DNA of 61,158 nt, the filler included. It is 7 parts of 7 records of this genome, joined end to end, with 100 filler letters (N's around TTAATTAATTAA, not from the genome) between each part and the next. Parts side by side here need not be neighbours in the genome. Positions count along the whole stretch, not along the records: positions 42,932 to 47,718 come from SRR20825010_5380; 6 more parts are not named here. The stretch is one strand, 5' to 3'. The translations under genes were made by a program, and so were the position numbers. Below the pieces are notes generated by a model. It was not told where the DNA came from. It saw only the letters and a list, made by a program, of their open reading frames with translations, and did no database searches. Below, in pieces: positions 6,940 to 47,718 of the stretch (position 1 is the first letter of the stretch; each line of letters starts with the position of its first letter).

Positions 6940-7039
6940 NNNNNNNNNNNNNNNNNNNNNNNNNNNNNNNNNNNNNNNNNNNNTTAATTAATTAANNNNN
7001 NNNNNNNNNNNNNNNNNNNNNNNNNNNNNNNNNNNNNNN
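6940..7039. other. Artificial contig spacer
   Basis: 44 N + TTAATTAATTAA (stops in all six frames) + 44 N. Confidence 0.98.
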
Positions 7040-42931: not shown

Positions 42932-43227
42932 GATCCATCGCGGACAACCGGCTGGGTGGATGGTACAGCTACCGCGCTGCCAAGGCGGGGGTGAACCAAT
43001 TGATCCACACTTCAGCAGTCGAACTGGCACGGACACATCCACAATTGGCCTGCGTCTGTCTGCATCCCGGCACCGTCGAAACGCCCTTTACCGCGAAATA
43101 CGCCGCCCGCCACCCGACGGTCACAGCAGAGCATGCAGCAGAGAGGTTGGTGGCGGTGATGTCGGGGCTACTGGCCAAGGACACCGGAAAATTCCTAGAT
43201 TATGCTGGTCAGGAAATCCCGTGGTGA
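42932..43227 (+). CDS. SDR oxidoreductase (CsgA/C-factor-like), 5'-truncated
   Basis: SIADNRLGGWYSYRAAKAG (YxxxK), LHPGTVET and a C-terminal G.FLDY.G.EIPW. Confidence 0.9.
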
Positions 43228-44747
43228 GCCGCCTGATTTTGGTCTTGGGCGACCAGTTGAGTGAAGGACTTGCTGCGCTCAAGGCGGCTGACAAGGCGCG
43301 CGATGTGGTGGTTATGGCCGAAGTCGCGGATGAAGCGGGCTATGTCCCGCACCACCCCAAGAAGATCGCACTGATCTTTGCCGCGATGCGCAAGTTCGCG
43401 GCGCAGTTGCGGAACGATGGCTGGGATGTGCGGTACGCTAAACTGGACGACACTGGAAACGCCAGGTCCATCTGCGGCGAACTTTTGCGCCGCGCTGAGG
43501 AGACAGGCGCGACCGAGGTCATTGCCACAGAGCCCGGAGAATGGCGTCTGATCAATGCCCTACAGCATTGCCCACTAAAGGTGCGGATGCTGGAGGATGA
43601 CAGGTTCATTGCCTCTCACGCCGAGTTCGACAACTGGGCAGACGGGCGCAAGGCGCTCCGGATGGAGTATTTCTATCGCGACATGCGGCGCAAGACGGGG
43701 CTGCTGATGGAGGGGGACAAGCCGGTGGGCGGCCAGTGGAACTATGACCACGATAACCGCAAACCGGCTCCGGATGAAGTGACGCATGCCCCCCTCTGGT
43801 TTGAGCCGGATGAGGAAATCAAAGAGGTTCTGGACCTTGTCGAGGCCCGCTTTGCCGACAACTTCGGGGCCTTGCGGCCGTTTGGGTTTGCCACGGACCG
43901 AGAGCAGGCGTTGCGCGCGCTTGGGCATTTTGTGGACCATGCCCTGCCGCGTTTCGGCGACTATCAGGACGCGATACAGGACCGGAACAGGTTTCTTTAT
44001 CACTCGCTCTTGTCGGCTTACATCAACATTGGACTTCTGGATGCGCTGGAAGTGTGCCAAGCAGTTGAAAAAGCGTATGAAAATGGGGGTGTCCCGATCA
44101 ACGCCGCAGAAGGGTTCATCCGGCAGATCATCGGCTGGCGGGAGTACATGCGTGGCATCTATTTTCGCGAGGGGCCAGAGTATCCATCGCGCAACGTGTT
44201 GAAACATAGCCGGACGTTGCCAGCCCTTTACTGGGGTGCTGAGACGGATATGCGATGTATGGCCAAGGCGGTCGAGCAGACGCGCGATGAGGCATACGCC
44301 CATCACATCCAACGGCTGATGGTGACGGGTAATTTCGGTCTTCTGGCGGGCATTGATCCGGGCGCGCTGCACGAATGGTATTTAAGCGTCTATGTTGATG
44401 CGTTTGAGTGGGTCGAGGCACCAAACACCGTAGGAATGAGCCAATTCGCCGATGGTGGTCTGGTCGCGTCAAAGCCTTATGTGTCTTCGGGAAATTACAT
44501 CAACAAAATGTCGGACCACTGTAAGGTTTGCGCCTATTCGGTGACGAAAAAGACGGGTGAGGGGGCTTGTCCGTTCAATCTGCTGTACTGGCATTTTATG
44601 GACCGGCACCGCGAAAGGTTTGAGGGCAATCCACGCATGGCTCAAATGTACCGTACCTTTGATCGTATGGACTCCGACAAGCGGGAAACTGTGCTGAATG
44701 AGGCGCAGGGTTTTCTCGACCGGATGGATGCCGGAGAAAGGGTCTGA
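43224..44747 (+). CDS. cryB: Fe-S bacterial cryptochrome/(6-4) photolyase (CryB/PhrB family)
   Basis: GTG start overlaps the SDR stop. LILVLGDQL, HHPKKI, RMEYFYR, WNYDHDNR, YAHHIQRLM and four Cys (MRCM, HCKVC, ACPF) for a 4Fe-4S cluster. Confidence 0.92.
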   Translation: MSRLILVLGDQLSEGLAALKAADKARDVVVMAEVADEAGYVPHHPKKIALIFAAMRKFAAQLRNDGWDVRYAKLDDTGNARSICGELLRRAEETGATEVIATEPGEWRLINALQHCPLKVRMLEDDRFIASHAEFDNWADGRKALRMEYFYRDMRRKTGLLMEGDKPVGGQWNYDHDNRKPAPDEVTHAPLWFEPDEEIKEVLDLVEARFADNFGALRPFGFATDREQALRALGHFVDHALPRFGDYQDAIQDRNRFLYHSLLSAYINIGLLDALEVCQAVEKAYENGGVPINAAEGFIRQIIGWREYMRGIYFREGPEYPSRNVLKHSRTLPALYWGAETDMRCMAKAVEQTRDEAYAHHIQRLMVTGNFGLLAGIDPGALHEWYLSVYVDAFEWVEAPNTVGMSQFADGGLVASKPYVSSGNYINKMSDHCKVCAYSVTKKTGEGACPFNLLYWHFMDRHRERFEGNPRMAQMYRTFDRMDSDKRETVLNEAQGFLDRMDAGERV

Positions 44748-44813
44748 CGCCGCTCTGATACGACGGGTTCTGCGGCGCGCCACCGCCTATAACAGGCGAT
44801 GGCGCAACGCTGC

Positions 44814-45272
44814 TTATGGCTTGATGTAGGTATAGCCTTCTTGCTGCAGCTTCGACAGCTCGGCCACGCCCGACGGCACGATATCATCCTCCCACACGTC
44901 GTAGAGGTCGTCGGAGTAGTTGATGTTGCGTCCGGTGAGGGTGTTATTGCAGACGTGAAATTTTACGTTCTGAGATTTCAACCCGCCGATAACTGTCTGT
45001 AGACCGTCGTCTGCCATGGCCGATTGCAGCATGCTGATGCCGTTACCGTGCAGCACAACCTTGATATCCATGTTCTCGACGCCGACGGCATTGATGTGGT
45101 TCTGAATGTTGCGCATAGCGCCGCGATAGGCTTTGGAGTTCTCCCCACCAAGATAATTGATGTGATAGACGACTTTCTGTTTGCCATACCCTTCGGCAAA
45201 CGACGCGTTCGGTGTCGCAAAAAGCGCGATGGCAAGCCCGATGATGGCAGCAAGGCGGATGAAGTGAGTCAT
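44814..45272 (-). CDS. Exported DsrE/DsrF-like family protein
   Basis: Signal peptide, QKVVYHIN, NIQNH, VVLHGNG, conserved VCNNTL cysteine and VPSGVAEL..LQ..GY.YIKP; RBS before ATG 45272. Confidence 0.85.
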   Translation of the reverse strand: MTHFIRLAAIIGLAIALFATPNASFAEGYGKQKVVYHINYLGGENSKAYRGAMRNIQNHINAVGVENMDIKVVLHGNGISMLQSAMADDGLQTVIGGLKSQNVKFHVCNNTLTGRNINYSDDLYDVWEDDIVPSGVAELSKLQQEGYTYIKP

Positions 45273-45399
45273 TGTTCTGGTCTCCTCCCAAAAGGGCGGG
45301 CTGACCGTGCCCGCCAAAGACCAGAATGCCGCATGGGCACTGCCGCCGCACACCCCGCAAAACCCCGTGTTTCATGCGGGTTTGGTCCCCGGGAATACC

Positions 45400-46665
45400 C
45401 TAGGTTTCCGGAATCGCCTCTGATTCCTGCTGTCCGGCGCGGGCGATAAGCTGGGCGGAACTGCGGGCCTCGAACTTGCGCAGCAGGTTGGCGCGGTGAA
45501 ACTCGACCGTCTTGGGGCTGATGCCTAATTGCGCGGCGATTTCCTTTGTCGATTTGCCTGCGCCGATCTGCGCCAGCACCTGCGTCTCTCGCCGGGTCAG
45601 CGAAACGGTGTCCTGATCCCTTGTTGGCTTGGCTCCCCGGGTCGGGCCGCCGCGCCGCACCCGTATAACGACCAGGCCACCTCCAAGACCAAGCACACCA
45701 GCAGCGCCGACAAACAGCCAGAGCACAAACGTGGTGCCGGGGTTGCCGACATCCGTTGTGGGTGACGACCGGCCCGCAAAGGCAGCGACCAGTGCATGCG
45801 CGTCATGGTAGCTGACCGGCGCGCCCCAGGGGTCTGGCAGACCACGATCCGTGCTTTGCAGCAGGGCCAGCGCCACCGCGTCGCGCATTGCAGCATCGGT
45901 TCCAGCCAGCGCCAGAAATGGCCATTCCGGGTAAAGGCGTGTGCTGACCGCCTCAGGGTGGGTGTAGGTGACATTGGCATTGAGCGCGCGAAGGCTATCG
46001 CTGGGCACAGTGCCTTCGATTACCAACCGTTCCAGCAGGCCACTGCGTACAATGCCTGCGTCCAGTTTGCCCGACAGAACGTCCGCGACAATCGCGTCCT
46101 GCGGAAAGCCGTAAAAGACAAGGTCGGCGGGATCGTCGAAAAGATCGACACCCTGGGCGCGTGCCTCGAACCAAGTCATTTGGAACCCGCCAAAGGCCTG
46201 CGGAGCCACCGCCCCGACCCGCGCGCCGCGCAGATCGGCAAAGGTGGTCAATTGGCTGTCCGTCCGCACCAGCACCGCCGAGCCGAATTGCAGCGTATGT
46301 GCGCCATCCGCCAGAGAACGCTTACGCGTGGCCAGCACGCTCATCGGATACTGCCCGGCAAGGTCGATGTAGTGGCCGGGGTTGGTTATGAGAAAGTCCA
46401 GCCCGCCCGCATTAATCAACGGCCCGGCAGAGGTCAGCGTGACCGGGACAAACCGCACCACATGGGCGGGCAGGGCCTCTTGCAGATAGGTGGCAAGCCG
46501 GGACCACTGCGACTCTCCCGCGTTCCAGCCGCGATGCGCCAGAACTCCGACGCGGACGATTGGACGTTCGATGTCCTGCGCGCGCGAGGGGATGGCGCAC
46601 AGGCACGACAGCAGGAGGCACAGCAGGAGTGCGCGCGCGCCGCCTAATCCATCGGCACGGATCAT
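45400..46665 (-). CDS. PhnD/TtrS-like periplasmic binding domain + TM helix + LuxR/FixJ-type HTH (one-component regulator)
   Basis: Signal peptide; VRVGVLAHRG, DFLITNPGHY, AFGGF, DAGIVRSGLLE and STRLYPEWPF sensor motifs; TM FVLWLFVGAAGVLGLGGGLVVI-RVRR; LTRRETQVL...GKSTKEIAAQLGISPKTVEFHRANL HTH. Confidence 0.85.
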   Translation of the reverse strand: MIRADGLGGARALLLCLLLSCLCAIPSRAQDIERPIVRVGVLAHRGWNAGESQWSRLATYLQEALPAHVVRFVPVTLTSAGPLINAGGLDFLITNPGHYIDLAGQYPMSVLATRKRSLADGAHTLQFGSAVLVRTDSQLTTFADLRGARVGAVAPQAFGGFQMTWFEARAQGVDLFDDPADLVFYGFPQDAIVADVLSGKLDAGIVRSGLLERLVIEGTVPSDSLRALNANVTYTHPEAVSTRLYPEWPFLALAGTDAAMRDAVALALLQSTDRGLPDPWGAPVSYHDAHALVAAFAGRSSPTTDVGNPGTTFVLWLFVGAAGVLGLGGGLVVIRVRRGGPTRGAKPTRDQDTVSLTRRETQVLAQIGAGKSTKEIAAQLGISPKTVEFHRANLLRKFEARSSAQLIARAGQQESEAIPET

Positions 46666-46706
46666 CCGCCAATAATACGATGTGTCGTCGCGGTTGGCGC
46701 GGCCGT

Positions 46707-47718
46707 TCAATTGTCCGCCGGTGCGGGGACAGGGGCGGGATCTGGCGCGGCTTGTGGTTCAGGTGCGGGGGCCGGCGGAACGGCGCGCAGGGCGCCGCCA
46801 ACCCAATCGCCTGACGCCTCTTCGCCGGTGGCGTATTTCATCGTGCCCTGACCTTGGCGTTTGCCGTCCTTGAACGTGCCCTGATAAATGTCGCCGTTGG
46901 CGTAGACGGCGATGCCCTCGCCGTTGATTTCACCGCGCACCCATGTGCCCTCGTAGCGAAAGCCAGAGGCCATTTCGATAACGCCTTTGCCGTGGCGCTG
47001 GCCCTCACGGAACTGGCCATCGTAAACGGTGCCGTCGGGATAGGTCGCCTTGCCCTCTCCATGACGTTGGCCGTTCTGCCAATTGCCCTCATAGCGGTAG
47101 CCGTCGGGGTACGTCATGACGCCAAACCCGTCATTGCGGGCATTTTCAAAGCTGCCCTCATAGACCAGCCCGTTGGGATAGGTCGCACGGCCCTTGCCCT
47201 GAATCACGCCGTTGACCCACTCGCCGGAATAGGTTGCGCCATCGGGATAGGTGATCGTGCCAATGCCATTGGCAAGGTCGCCCTTGAACTGGCCTTCGTA
47301 GACAGAACCGTCGGGATAAGTGACCTTGCCCTTGCCCTCGATCTGGCCGGTGATCCAGTTGCCATCGTAGCGATAGCCGTCCTTGCCGACAAAGCTGCCG
47401 GTGCCGTGGCGCTGGTCATTGTTGAACTGGCCTTCGTAGATATCGCCGTTCTCGTAGATGACCTTGCCCTTGCCCTCACGCCGACCATCGACAAGCTGGC
47501 CCTCATATACGTCACCATTGGGCTGGATCAGCTTGCCTTCGCCGTCGATCTGCCCTTCACGCCATGTGCCTTCGTAGATCAGGCCATCGGGCATCGTCAG
47601 CTTGCCAAAGCCGTCGCGTTCACCATCGGCGACGCGGCCATCGTAGATCGACTTGTCGGGGTAGGTGACTTTGGCAACGCCTTCCTTGACGCCGTTCACC
47701 CATTGGCCGTCATAGACG
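46707..47718 (-). CDS. MORN-repeat protein, 5'-truncated
   Basis: Repeated YEG.W..G...G.G..TYPDG 23-aa units and a Pro-rich tail. Confidence 0.92.

Follow-up and report, generated by a model that had tools for sequence, protein, structure and literature searches.

Membrane-tethered transcription factors are known mostly from ToxR and CadC. Together with TcpP, these span the membrane once, bind DNA while tethered, and sense in the periplasm without phosphotransfer; their DNA-binding part is an N-terminal winged helix of the OmpR type, and their periplasmic domain is C-terminal. The reverse topology, in which a sensor of the kinase type is set on a helix-turn-helix (HTH) of the GerE type, was described only very recently, and for the sensing of glycans in Bacteroidota: according to the accessible part of a preprint (10.64898/2026.01.10.698779), BguR of Formosa agariphila and SusR of Bacteroides are membrane-spanning one-component regulators. 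The present study concerns a locus with this reversed order in a stretch of DNA of 61,158 nucleotides, filler included (in the following, the window). Between positions 44,814 and 46,665 it contains a regulator gene, whose product joins a periplasmic domain of the family PF12974 (Phosphonate-bd) by a single transmembrane (TM) helix to a C-terminal GerE HTH, and, directly downstream on the same strand, a gene for a small DsrE-like protein.

As far as they are treated in the accessible part of the preprint, BguR and SusR share with the present regulator a signal peptide, a sensor in the periplasm, one TM helix, a short linking segment and, at the C-terminus, a GerE domain, as well as the lack of HisKA, HATPase and receiver domains. 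In both cases the type of sensor is found elsewhere on two-component kinases, and the targets adjoin the regulator gene and exhibit a conserved upstream motif. By the same source, the sensor of BguR and SusR is a glycan sensor of tandem beta-propeller and Y_Y_Y domains in a protein of 940 aa from Bacteroidota, whereas here a PF12974 domain of about 270 aa is part of a protein of 421 aa from Alphaproteobacteria, with one gene for a small periplasmic protein, and not a polysaccharide utilisation locus, as its likely target. The family can be regarded as a design like that of BguR and SusR, built in a different phylum from an oxyanion-binding periplasmic binding protein (PBP). The principle is known; sensor class, phylum, target and candidate operator are new. 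An earlier description of the window made from its letters alone (the sequence-only reading) had known of no characterised example, which holds, within the literature searched, for the PF12974 type of sensor but not for the design and its topology, given what the preprint reports in its accessible part. Transmembrane transcription regulators have also been surveyed as a class, and the main text of that survey mentions neither LuxR/GerE nor Phosphonate-bd domains (PMC10269533). A literature search that covered few subscription journals yielded no publication describing a PF12974-TM-GerE protein or an exported DsrE protein of the MTH1491 type.

Among the phosphorelay systems, TtrS/TtrR and ThsS/ThsR likewise combine a periplasmic PF12974 sensor with an output of the LuxR/FixJ class, whereas in the present locus kinase core and receiver are missing, no ttrBCA or phs genes lie nearby, and the fusions fall into clades apart from the kinase forms. 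The same binding-protein fold serves oxyanion signalling, and not transport, in AioX/AioS and ArrX/ArrS as well (6esk, 6eu7 and 6xl2 are among the matches of the sensor domain); there, a free protein acts with a separate kinase and response regulator, whereas here the fold is covalently linked to the DNA-binding output.

Architecture and topology of the regulator

The regulator gene and the parts of its product are situated as follows:

45400..46665, minus strand: regulator gene, 421 aa, ATG start (open reading frame (ORF) and translation, Pfam, NCBIfam, 54 full-length loci)
46579..46665, minus strand: predicted signal peptide or signal anchor, residues 1-29, ending at the putative cleavage site ...AIPSRA/QD (hydropathy peak 2.19)
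45766..46566, minus strand: periplasmic class-II binding-protein domain of the PF12974 sensor class, residues ~34-300 (PF12974, TtrS model, fold matches)
45655..45741, minus strand: single TM helix, residues ~309-337, followed by RVRR (model helix H309-337; hydropathy)
45436..45603, minus strand: cytoplasmic HTH of the GerE/LuxR type, residues ~355-410 (PF00196, PDB matches, model)

An in-frame TTG upstream, at 46710, is an alternative start (ORF 45400..46710, 436 aa). Pfam recognizes PF12974 (E 2.1e-31) and PF00196 GerE (E 8.8e-21; 73.7 bits at a gathering threshold of 23.5) in the regulator, but neither HisKA nor HATPase_c nor Response_reg at E <= 0.01; Trans_reg_C and Y_Y_Y (PF07495) are without a Pfam match, too. 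Since the protein possesses neither kinase nor receiver, signalling by phosphotransfer is impossible, and the sequence-only reading was right in reporting these domains as missing.

The N-terminal hydropathy peak is found in 19 of 26 aligned homologues, several of the others beginning later in the alignment. The sole internal peak of a 19-residue scan (2.08, residues ~316-334) is present in all 26, and K and R together average 3.2 per 15 residues after the TM helix versus 1.8 before it in the same sequences. The linker between RVRR and the HTH comprises ~17-20 residues. Binding-domain motifs TNPGH, FGG.Q, GFP.D and PEW.F are invariant in the homologue alignment, as is the recognition-helix motif SPKTVE.HR.NLL in 26 sequences. 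Sequence matches of the HTH in the PDB are FixJ, EsrB, NarL and GerE. An AlphaFold2 model of the regulator exhibits a domain of alternating beta strands and alpha helices, the long helix 309-337 and a confidently predicted HTH, the helices of which (358-368, 373-380, 384-397 and 403-413) form a four-helix bundle with a predicted local distance difference test (pLDDT) of 94-97. Signal peptide, binding domain, single TM helix with RVRR, linker and HTH, which had been listed from the letters alone, were all recovered with Pfam, hydropathy and the model, and hydropathy, K/R bias and Pfam agree with the topology proposed at that time, i.e., a periplasmic N-terminal sensor and a cytoplasmic C-terminal HTH, opposite to ToxR and CadC.

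Spread of the family

The fusion is not confined to the window. Among the best 120 homologues listed, 118 have PF00196 and PF12974 together, the named ones coming from Antarctobacter, Maliponia, Mameliella, Salipiger, Marimonas, Marivita, Sulfitobacter, Neptunicoccus, and others. Eighty loci were retained from a scan of species-representative genomes, and in 54 of them the fusion is full-length; these belong to Rhodobacteraceae/Paracoccaceae, Hoeflea, Oricola, Roseibium, Kiloniellaceae, Methyloligellaceae, and to records of Rhodospirillales and Hyphomicrobiales. The orthologue of Antarctobacter heliothermus DSM 11445 (locus L003) is 90% identical to the regulator of the window. In an even sample of 301 genomes from the family to which Mameliella belongs, ten contain the regulator, nine of them near full-length and one (G245) in two pieces of the same frame. 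The family is real and widespread in several orders of marine Alphaproteobacteria. The names under which its members appear in public records, "PhnD/SsuA/transferrin family substrate-binding protein" and "sensor histidine kinase TtrS", are both misleading.

As a side observation, an otherwise full-length match in one of the ten genomes (G268:C1:953374-954636) is interrupted by an in-frame TAG and may be a pseudogene; the adjoining DsrE-like gene is intact.

The downstream DsrE-like gene

The gene that follows the regulator in the window is:

44814..45272, minus strand: DsrE-fold protein, 152 aa, MTH1491/ST0148 subfamily, likely target of the regulator (PF02635, fold, Cys108)

Its product is matched by PF02635 with an E-value of 3.8e-13 (50.1 bits, threshold 22.7). 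The N-terminus is hydrophobic and ends in AEG, hydrophobic N-termini are found in all aligned DsrE-like sequences, and the protein is predicted to be exported. Cys108 (codon 44949-44951) belongs to the motif VCNNTL and is situated where a strand passes into a helix; all 24 sequences aligned, those of the distant type 2 described below among them, possess this Cys; further invariant residues of these 24 sequences are H37, N55, Q57, N58, N110, T111 and S134. The closest solved relatives by sequence are MTH1491 (1l1s, E 1.8e-7) and ST0148 (2pd2), the Cys of which aligns with Cys108. The structural model (pLDDT 87.7) is most similar to these two (TM-score 0.87 to 1l1s and 0.90 to 2pd2), followed by YchN, DsrEFH and TusBCD. 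The fold is shared with DsrE, TusD, DsrE3A and YchN; compared with DsrE and TusD, the protein differs in its predicted export and in lacking DsrF/H or TusB/C partners, and an organization of the DsrEFH/TusBCD type, in which three adjacent paralogous genes specify a cytoplasmic hetero-hexamer, is not found in the window, where the gene is single, encodes a predicted signal peptide and has no adjoining paralogue. The known role of the DsrE superfamily with the conserved Cys is sulfur transfer, and by membership in this superfamily such a role may be assumed here as well. A complex prediction of the periplasmic domain of the regulator (32-300) with the mature DsrE-like protein (28-152), run without controls, scored 0.01 compared with a mark of 0.34.

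The genes behind the regulator were recorded for the 54 full-length loci, 52 of which have enough downstream DNA:

45/54 loci: DsrE type 1, close orthologue of the window gene, directly downstream, same strand
1/54 loci: DsrE type 2 (distant) downstream, same strand
3/54 loci (incl. L035): SBP_bac_11, then DsrE type 2, same strand
3/54 loci: SBP_bac_11 alone downstream, same strand
2/54 loci: contig end after the regulator

A gene for an exported DsrE-like protein, for an orphan binding protein, or for both is therefore present right after the regulator in all 52 loci that could be evaluated, which is a new observation, and the DsrE-like gene, which the sequence-only reading had noted as the next gene on the strand, is a conserved partner, type 1 being directly downstream in 45 of the 54 loci. 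The variant loci with an orphan exported SBP_bac_11 protein (320-350 aa, no adjoining permease) are L026, L035, L041, L047, L049, L052 and L101. All-against-all clustering of ORFs revealed no further conserved neighbour beyond close relatives, the other large clusters being antisense ORFs over the DsrE-like and regulator genes.

In the reverse direction the association is looser. Orthologues of DsrE type 1 (E <= 1e-50) are found in 22 of the 301 genomes, and only in seven of these beside the regulator; this asymmetry implies that the regulator depends on a gene of the DsrE kind, and not the reverse. The contexts of the 15 stand-alone DsrE-like genes, in which Pfam was run on 62 of 119 listed ORFs, are varied, with a rhodanese gene adjoining in two cases and a sulphur-transport protein near in one. 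Contexts of eight distant DsrE-like paralogues did not exhibit a consistent sulfur cluster (aldo/keto reductase in two, sulfate permease in one).

A palindrome linked to the regulator gene

Alignment of the DNA between the stop codon of the regulator and the start codon of the DsrE-like gene revealed a palindrome, not reported before, with the consensus CCTAGGG-N4-CCCTAGG. In the window it is:

45387..45404, strand not applicable: 18-bp imperfect palindrome CCTAGGGTATTCCCGGGG, candidate operator, including the regulator stop codon 45400-45402

The stop codon TAG lies within the palindrome in 21 of 46 cases, the window included, but wherever the stop codon falls, the distance from the palindrome core to the start codon of the downstream gene is nearly fixed (~113-136 nt). 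A position weight matrix (PWM) was built from 38 sites. Its sole match of at least 12 bits in the entire window is 45387-45404 itself (27.5 bits), and matches of at least 15 bits are found within 80 bp of the stop codon in 47 of the 54 loci, compared with three other matches in 763 kb on both strands. Among 17 loci that did not enter the matrix, 15 score at least 14 bits and 12 at least 15 bits; the background, 400 random 180-bp windows of the same loci, reaches a maximum of 13.7 with a mean of -1.7. Six of the palindrome-positive held-out loci are SBP_bac_11 variants. In three of four further regulator loci, fetched independently, the palindrome is situated just past the stop codon. It does not occur upstream of any of the 15 stand-alone DsrE-like genes (one match is 3 kb away), and 25 loci of kinase-type relatives gave three weak matches, in two loci. 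Allowing for up to one mismatch, the 18-mer is present as a single copy, at the module, in five of five genomes of 4.1-5.0 Mb.

The palindrome thus follows the regulator whatever gene lies downstream, and is unique in the genome, as is to be expected of a dedicated local operator for a dimeric GerE protein. Its invariant GGG/CCC core agrees with the invariance of the recognition-helix residues.

Relation to kinase forms

A representative search of 1.84 billion proteins yielded 757 at E <= 1e-30, of which the best 150, together with the query, were typed with a hidden Markov model of the HTH of the family. They comprise 27 short GerE forms (some of them fragments), three of middle length, 13 long GerE forms, one of which is a giant with multiple GerE domains and no binding domain, and 108 proteins without GerE, among which Pfam recognizes histidine kinases and hybrid kinases as well as PAS-GGDEF-EAL proteins. 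The long GerE forms (~595-650 aa) consist of PBP, TM helix, coiled coil, ~250 unannotated residues and GerE.

The tree of the binding domain contains 138 rows, after 13 had been dropped as fragments or for a domain count other than one. It is midpoint-rooted only, such that the direction, from kinase to fusion or the reverse, is not readable from it, and it does not place the family relative to a bona fide TtrS or ThsS, as none is included. The short fusions form two to three clades (19 rows with the query, eight rows, and one pair). They are excluded from a kinase-side clade (SH-aLRT 99), which comprises 97 of the 100 rows without GerE and 11 of the 12 long GerE forms; the other three rows without GerE (269-353 aa, probably fragments) are placed inside the clade of the query. 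The long GerE forms constitute a clade of their own, nested among the kinase forms. To judge from this tree, the binding domain was joined directly to GerE at least two times, and the short family has a long history of diversification. The idea of the sequence-only reading that a TtrS/TtrR pair had collapsed into one protein is not supported as a recent event, as the short fusions are found in old, diversified clades outside the kinase clade (SH-aLRT 99).

Members of the long form (595-632 aa) are P0150, P0154, P0156, P0163, P0165, P0169, P0171, P0174, P0189, P0191 and P0197, and their cytoplasmic stretch of ~250 residues looks GAF-like by eye. P0157 (495 aa, from a metagenome-assembled genome of Thiolinea) was listed with these long PF12974-TM-GerE proteins. 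The giant protein P0131 (3279 aa), which came from the same representative search, contains eight PF12974 stretches, Ephrin_rec_like repeats and a 7tm_3 domain (class C G protein-coupled receptor), a hint that domains of the PhnD type are used as modules of a receptor in a eukaryote-like protein, too.

Sensor domain and possible signal

Among the curated NCBIfam models, TtrS (NF040750) matches the regulator best, with an E-value of 1.7e-49 and 168.8 bits over profile positions 8-261 of 555. The competing models are weaker (PhnD TIGR03431, E 3.7e-5, 23.3 bits; phosphate/phosphonate TIGR01098, E 3.5e-8). That the TtrS model lies far above these two assigns the domain to the PF12974 sensor class and not to transport, and membership among PhnD transport proteins fails as well (23.3 bits at a TIGR03431 cut-off of 261.1; fusion to TM helix and HTH in place of a soluble protein encoded next to genes for permease and ATPase). 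The sequence-only reading, which had called the domain TtrS-like, is hence supported in its placement nearer to sensor kinases than to transport PhnD (1.7e-49 versus 3.7e-5); the name is apt at the level of the domain class, represented by the N-terminal half of NF040750, but not for TtrS itself, the cut-off of which is 750 bits. In a structure search with the regulator model (pLDDT 68), the fold matches were PtxB, ArrX, AioX, PhnD and SsuA; their root-mean-square deviation is high because of the modest quality of the model. The likely ligand class of the sensor is a small oxyanion.

That the signal is a sulfur oxyanion (thiosulfate or tetrathionate) or a sulfane-sulfur species is a tentative proposal, for which the odds are well below even. 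In its favour, the downstream protein has the DsrE fold with an invariant Cys, and a rhodanese gene adjoins two of the 15 stand-alone DsrE-like genes. SoxB (TIGR04486) is present in ten of ten regulator genomes versus 178 of 301 overall (Fisher one-sided p 0.005, phylogeny and completeness being ignored) and in 21 of the 22 genomes with DsrE type 1 versus the same 178 of 301 (p 1e-4, with the same simplification). According to the accessible parts of the respective papers, DsrE3A reacts with tetrathionate to form Cys-S-thiosulfonate (PMC4175335), and the sox cluster of Cupriavidus pinatubonensis includes a gene for a "DsrE family protein", which may or may not belong to the present subfamily (PMC13122954).

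Several results weigh against a sulfur signal. The regulator itself stays far below the TtrS cut-off. The 50 nearest relatives of the kinase type that were scanned all miss it as well, with 200-360 bits or with scores too low to be reported; no match above it exists in 14 control genomes or in G002 either. The ligands of the fold matches are phosphite, phosphonate, arsenate, arsenite and sulfonate, and the SBP_bac_11 proteins of the variant loci are matched best by ModA models, followed by sulfate/thiosulfate binders, all below cut-off. In the four genomes with both genes on one contig, regulator and soxB are 73-820 kb apart, and sox, ttr and tsd genes are not found as conserved neighbours in any part of the 54-locus census, such that the linkage to sox and tsdA for which a survey had been suggested did not emerge; ttrBCA, phs, kinase, response-regulator and ABC transporter genes are equally without conserved neighbourhood there. 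Daeffler et al., in the accessible part of their paper, count 838 PhnD-type sensor kinases, of which 154 are non-redundant, and only 13 of these adjoin thiosulfate genes and 18 tetrathionate genes (PMC5408782).

With the same architecture and wiring, the signal could instead be a non-sulfur oxyanion, such as phosphite or phosphonate, arsenate or arsenite, molybdate or tungstate, selenate or similar, which the DsrE-fold and ModA-like proteins would handle in the periplasm; this explanation, too, is doubtful but has to be taken seriously. The leading fold matches, PtxB (phosphite), ArrX (arsenate sensor), AioX (arsenite sensor), PhnD and SsuA, agree with it, as do the preference of the variant downstream protein for molybdate-binding ModA models, if below cut-off, the finding that the nearest kinase relatives are not TtrS, and the MTH1491/ST0148 subfamily being one without known function; most PhnD-type kinases, moreover, do not lie beside sulfur genes in the accessible part of the survey cited above (PMC5408782). 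On the other hand, no phn, ptx, ars, aio or mod gene for a transporter or an enzyme is conserved nearby, the PhnD and phosphate-family models match far below the TtrS model, the DsrE superfamily with its invariant Cys is linked to sulfur transfer, and SoxB co-occurs in ten of ten and in 21 of 22 genomes.

Proposed mechanism and alternatives

The two genes would constitute a self-contained module of a membrane-spanning one-component factor and an exported DsrE-fold protein. A small periplasmic anion would close the PF12974 domain; the closure would alter pairing or orientation of the TM helices within a presumed dimer, and the paired, tethered HTHs would then bind the 18-bp palindrome or shift their grip on it. 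Occupancy of the palindrome, ~125 bp upstream of the start of the second gene, might set transcription of that gene, by activation, as the sequence-only reading had suggested, or by repression. In the variant modules, a ModA/CysP-like orphan binding protein, with or without type 2 DsrE, would be the target. Architecture, topology signals, the conserved pairing of the genes and the regulator-linked, genome-unique palindrome are established. For the overall design, i.e., a phosphorylation-independent, tethered regulator of the LuxR type that responds to a periplasmic oxyanion and acts on one local palindrome and one target, a probability of about 0.7 is estimated.

By its co-occurrence with the regulator, the palindrome is probably the operator. 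Some results count against this design. Two held-out loci, L033, in which the contig ends soon after the regulator, and L039, score low, and the regulator locus L098 has neither a recognizable downstream DsrE or SBP gene nor a box of at least 15 bits. The regulator model is of moderate confidence as a whole (mean pLDDT 68, predicted template modelling score 0.38). Furthermore, no sigma-70 consensus promoter is found in 45200-45480; as none lies between palindrome and gene, promoter geometry and the choice between activation and repression are not assignable.

In a narrower version, which is rather unlikely to be correct in all its parts, the regulator would serve as a minimal sensor that needs no ATP and reads sulfur oxyanions (thiosulfate, tetrathionate or a related species) or sulfane sulfur in the periplasm, and would switch on a single exported carrier of the DsrE type from a site that overlaps its own stop codon. 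If true, the carrier would be the first periplasmic sulfur carrier of the DsrE family, acting alongside the Sox pathway in marine Alphaproteobacteria. The problem of how a tethered factor finds its target would then be solved by the operator's place at the 3' end of the factor's own gene, because co-translational membrane insertion would hold the operator at the membrane, and the regulator together with the 18-bp box would be a portable one-protein biosensor.

The exported DsrE-like protein might, however, be a co-sensor as well as a target; through binding to the periplasmic domain or modification of it, e.g., by delivery of Cys-bound sulfur, it would close a feedback loop. Precedents are the free binding proteins AioX, TorT and LuxP, which work with kinases, and ToxS, which works with ToxR. 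Both proteins are predicted to be periplasmic, their genes are adjacent in 45 of 54 loci, and across the same loci the DsrE-like protein is more conserved than the regulator (59-89% versus ~36-90% identity). This explanation is nevertheless unlikely, given that the orthologue stands alone in 15 of 22 genomes, that L026, L047 and L049 possess an unrelated downstream binding protein and no DsrE-like gene within 2.5 kb downstream, and that a regulator-linked palindrome upstream of the gene is accounted for more simply by a target relation. (In L049, a DsrE-like match is located upstream on the opposite strand.) Less probable still is an HTH that is not active while tethered, be it a latent factor freed by proteolysis or a membrane sink, with the palindrome serving another protein, a terminator or a roadblock. 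The short linker (~17-25 residues), which forces the DNA close to the membrane, speaks for it, and a stop codon inside the palindrome in 21 of 46 cases would also fit a function at the transcript's 3' end. Action in the tethered state is, on the contrary, established for the ToxR/CadC type and proposed for BguR; in size and symmetry the palindrome corresponds to a site for a GerE dimer, it keeps its distance to the downstream start even where the stop codon lies elsewhere, and no protease gene is among the conserved neighbours. The fusion could finally be an artefact of assembly or annotation, i.e., frameshift-merged genes or a chimeric contig, as the window combines seven contigs that range from 0.42 to 0.62 in GC content and the nearest genome (G001) is without the regulator gene. 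The fusion junction, however, is internal to one contig, the identical open frame recurs in 54 independent loci, DNA contigs from two studies span 45087-46760 and 45156-46760 with 0 differences, and at least half of the sampled words of the stretch are found in 17 runs from about nine studies, which makes an artefact extremely improbable. Absence from other genomes or lack of support by reads, which would have spoken against the fusion, was hence not found, and misassembly was ruled out by the independent loci together with the contigs of the two studies.

The tethered design outlined above offers a clean experimental system, with one regulator, one genome-unique palindrome and one small target gene. 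The family allows testing how a signal is relayed from an outside ligand to an HTH situated ~20 residues off the membrane, which role DsrE proteins of the MTH1491 type play in the periplasm, and whether such regulators can be used as single-protein biosensors.

Further features of the intergenic region

Apart from the palindrome, the region between the two genes contains several conserved blocks:

45273..45399, minus strand: intergenic region, 127 bp (conserved blocks, alignment of 35 regions)
45352-45372, minus strand: half-site-like block (alignment of 35 regions)
45322-45334, minus strand: TG-containing -10-like block, a putative promoter element (alignment)
45295-45315, minus strand: stem-loop (mean z -1.66 over 45 loci; z < -1.5 in 24/45)
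45282-45289, minus strand: Shine-Dalgarno sequence GGGAGGAG (GGGAG invariant in 35 regions)

The stem-loop lies 6-20 nt upstream of the strong, invariant Shine-Dalgarno sequence GGGAGGA; its structure is kept, and its sequence varies. As a hairpin it may stabilize the 5' end of the mRNA, or it may act on the transcript of the regulator as a partial terminator. As an intrinsic terminator it was rejected: a T-run follows the stem-loop in the window and is missing in most loci, for which reason the stem-loop is recorded merely as a conserved structure. A scan of 45200-45480 yielded one weak terminator-like site, compared with 0.3 expected in shuffled sequences, and no Rfam family matches 44700-46900 at E <= 1.

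Window, flanking genes and origin of the segment

The window consists of seven contigs joined by N spacers (paired 44-N), with N runs at 6940, 13535, 19820, 34935, 42832 and 47719, among others. The module is situated on one segment of 4787 bp (42932-47718, GC 0.60) that contains four genes, for the photolyase-related protein DPRP, the DsrE-like protein, the regulator and a MORN-repeat protein. The two flanking ones are:

42960-44747, plus strand: photolyase-related DPRP gene, convergent with the DsrE-like gene
46707-47699, minus strand: MORN-repeat gene, with an overlap of 4 bp between its end and the regulator's alternative TTG start

The four-gene order (MORN, regulator, DsrE-like, DPRP) is confined to the group of Antarctobacter, Mameliella, Salipiger and Marimonas (L003-L016), within which MORN is found in 12 loci and DPRP in nine. 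The segment looks Antarctobacter-like: compared with A. heliothermus, the MORN protein is 97.6% identical and the regulator, as given above, 90%. The nearest genome, G001, which contains 44% of the sampled words of the window, exhibits only weak matches, confined to the HTH, in place of the regulator.

Near-identical copies were found in algae and in marine metagenome runs. The assembly probably derives from a mixed bin or from a culture that contained accompanying bacteria. Two contigs from RNA libraries cover only the edges (46479-46760 and 44760-44968) at a depth of 2.6-5, too thin for statements on transcription, strand or start. In run X3, a second contig, of about four times the depth of the other contig from this run, matches in two short pieces, 45156-45185 and 45463-45522; it differs in nine of 60 letters, 262 other letters separate both pieces, and it probably stems from a related strain or species in which the copy of the locus has diverged.

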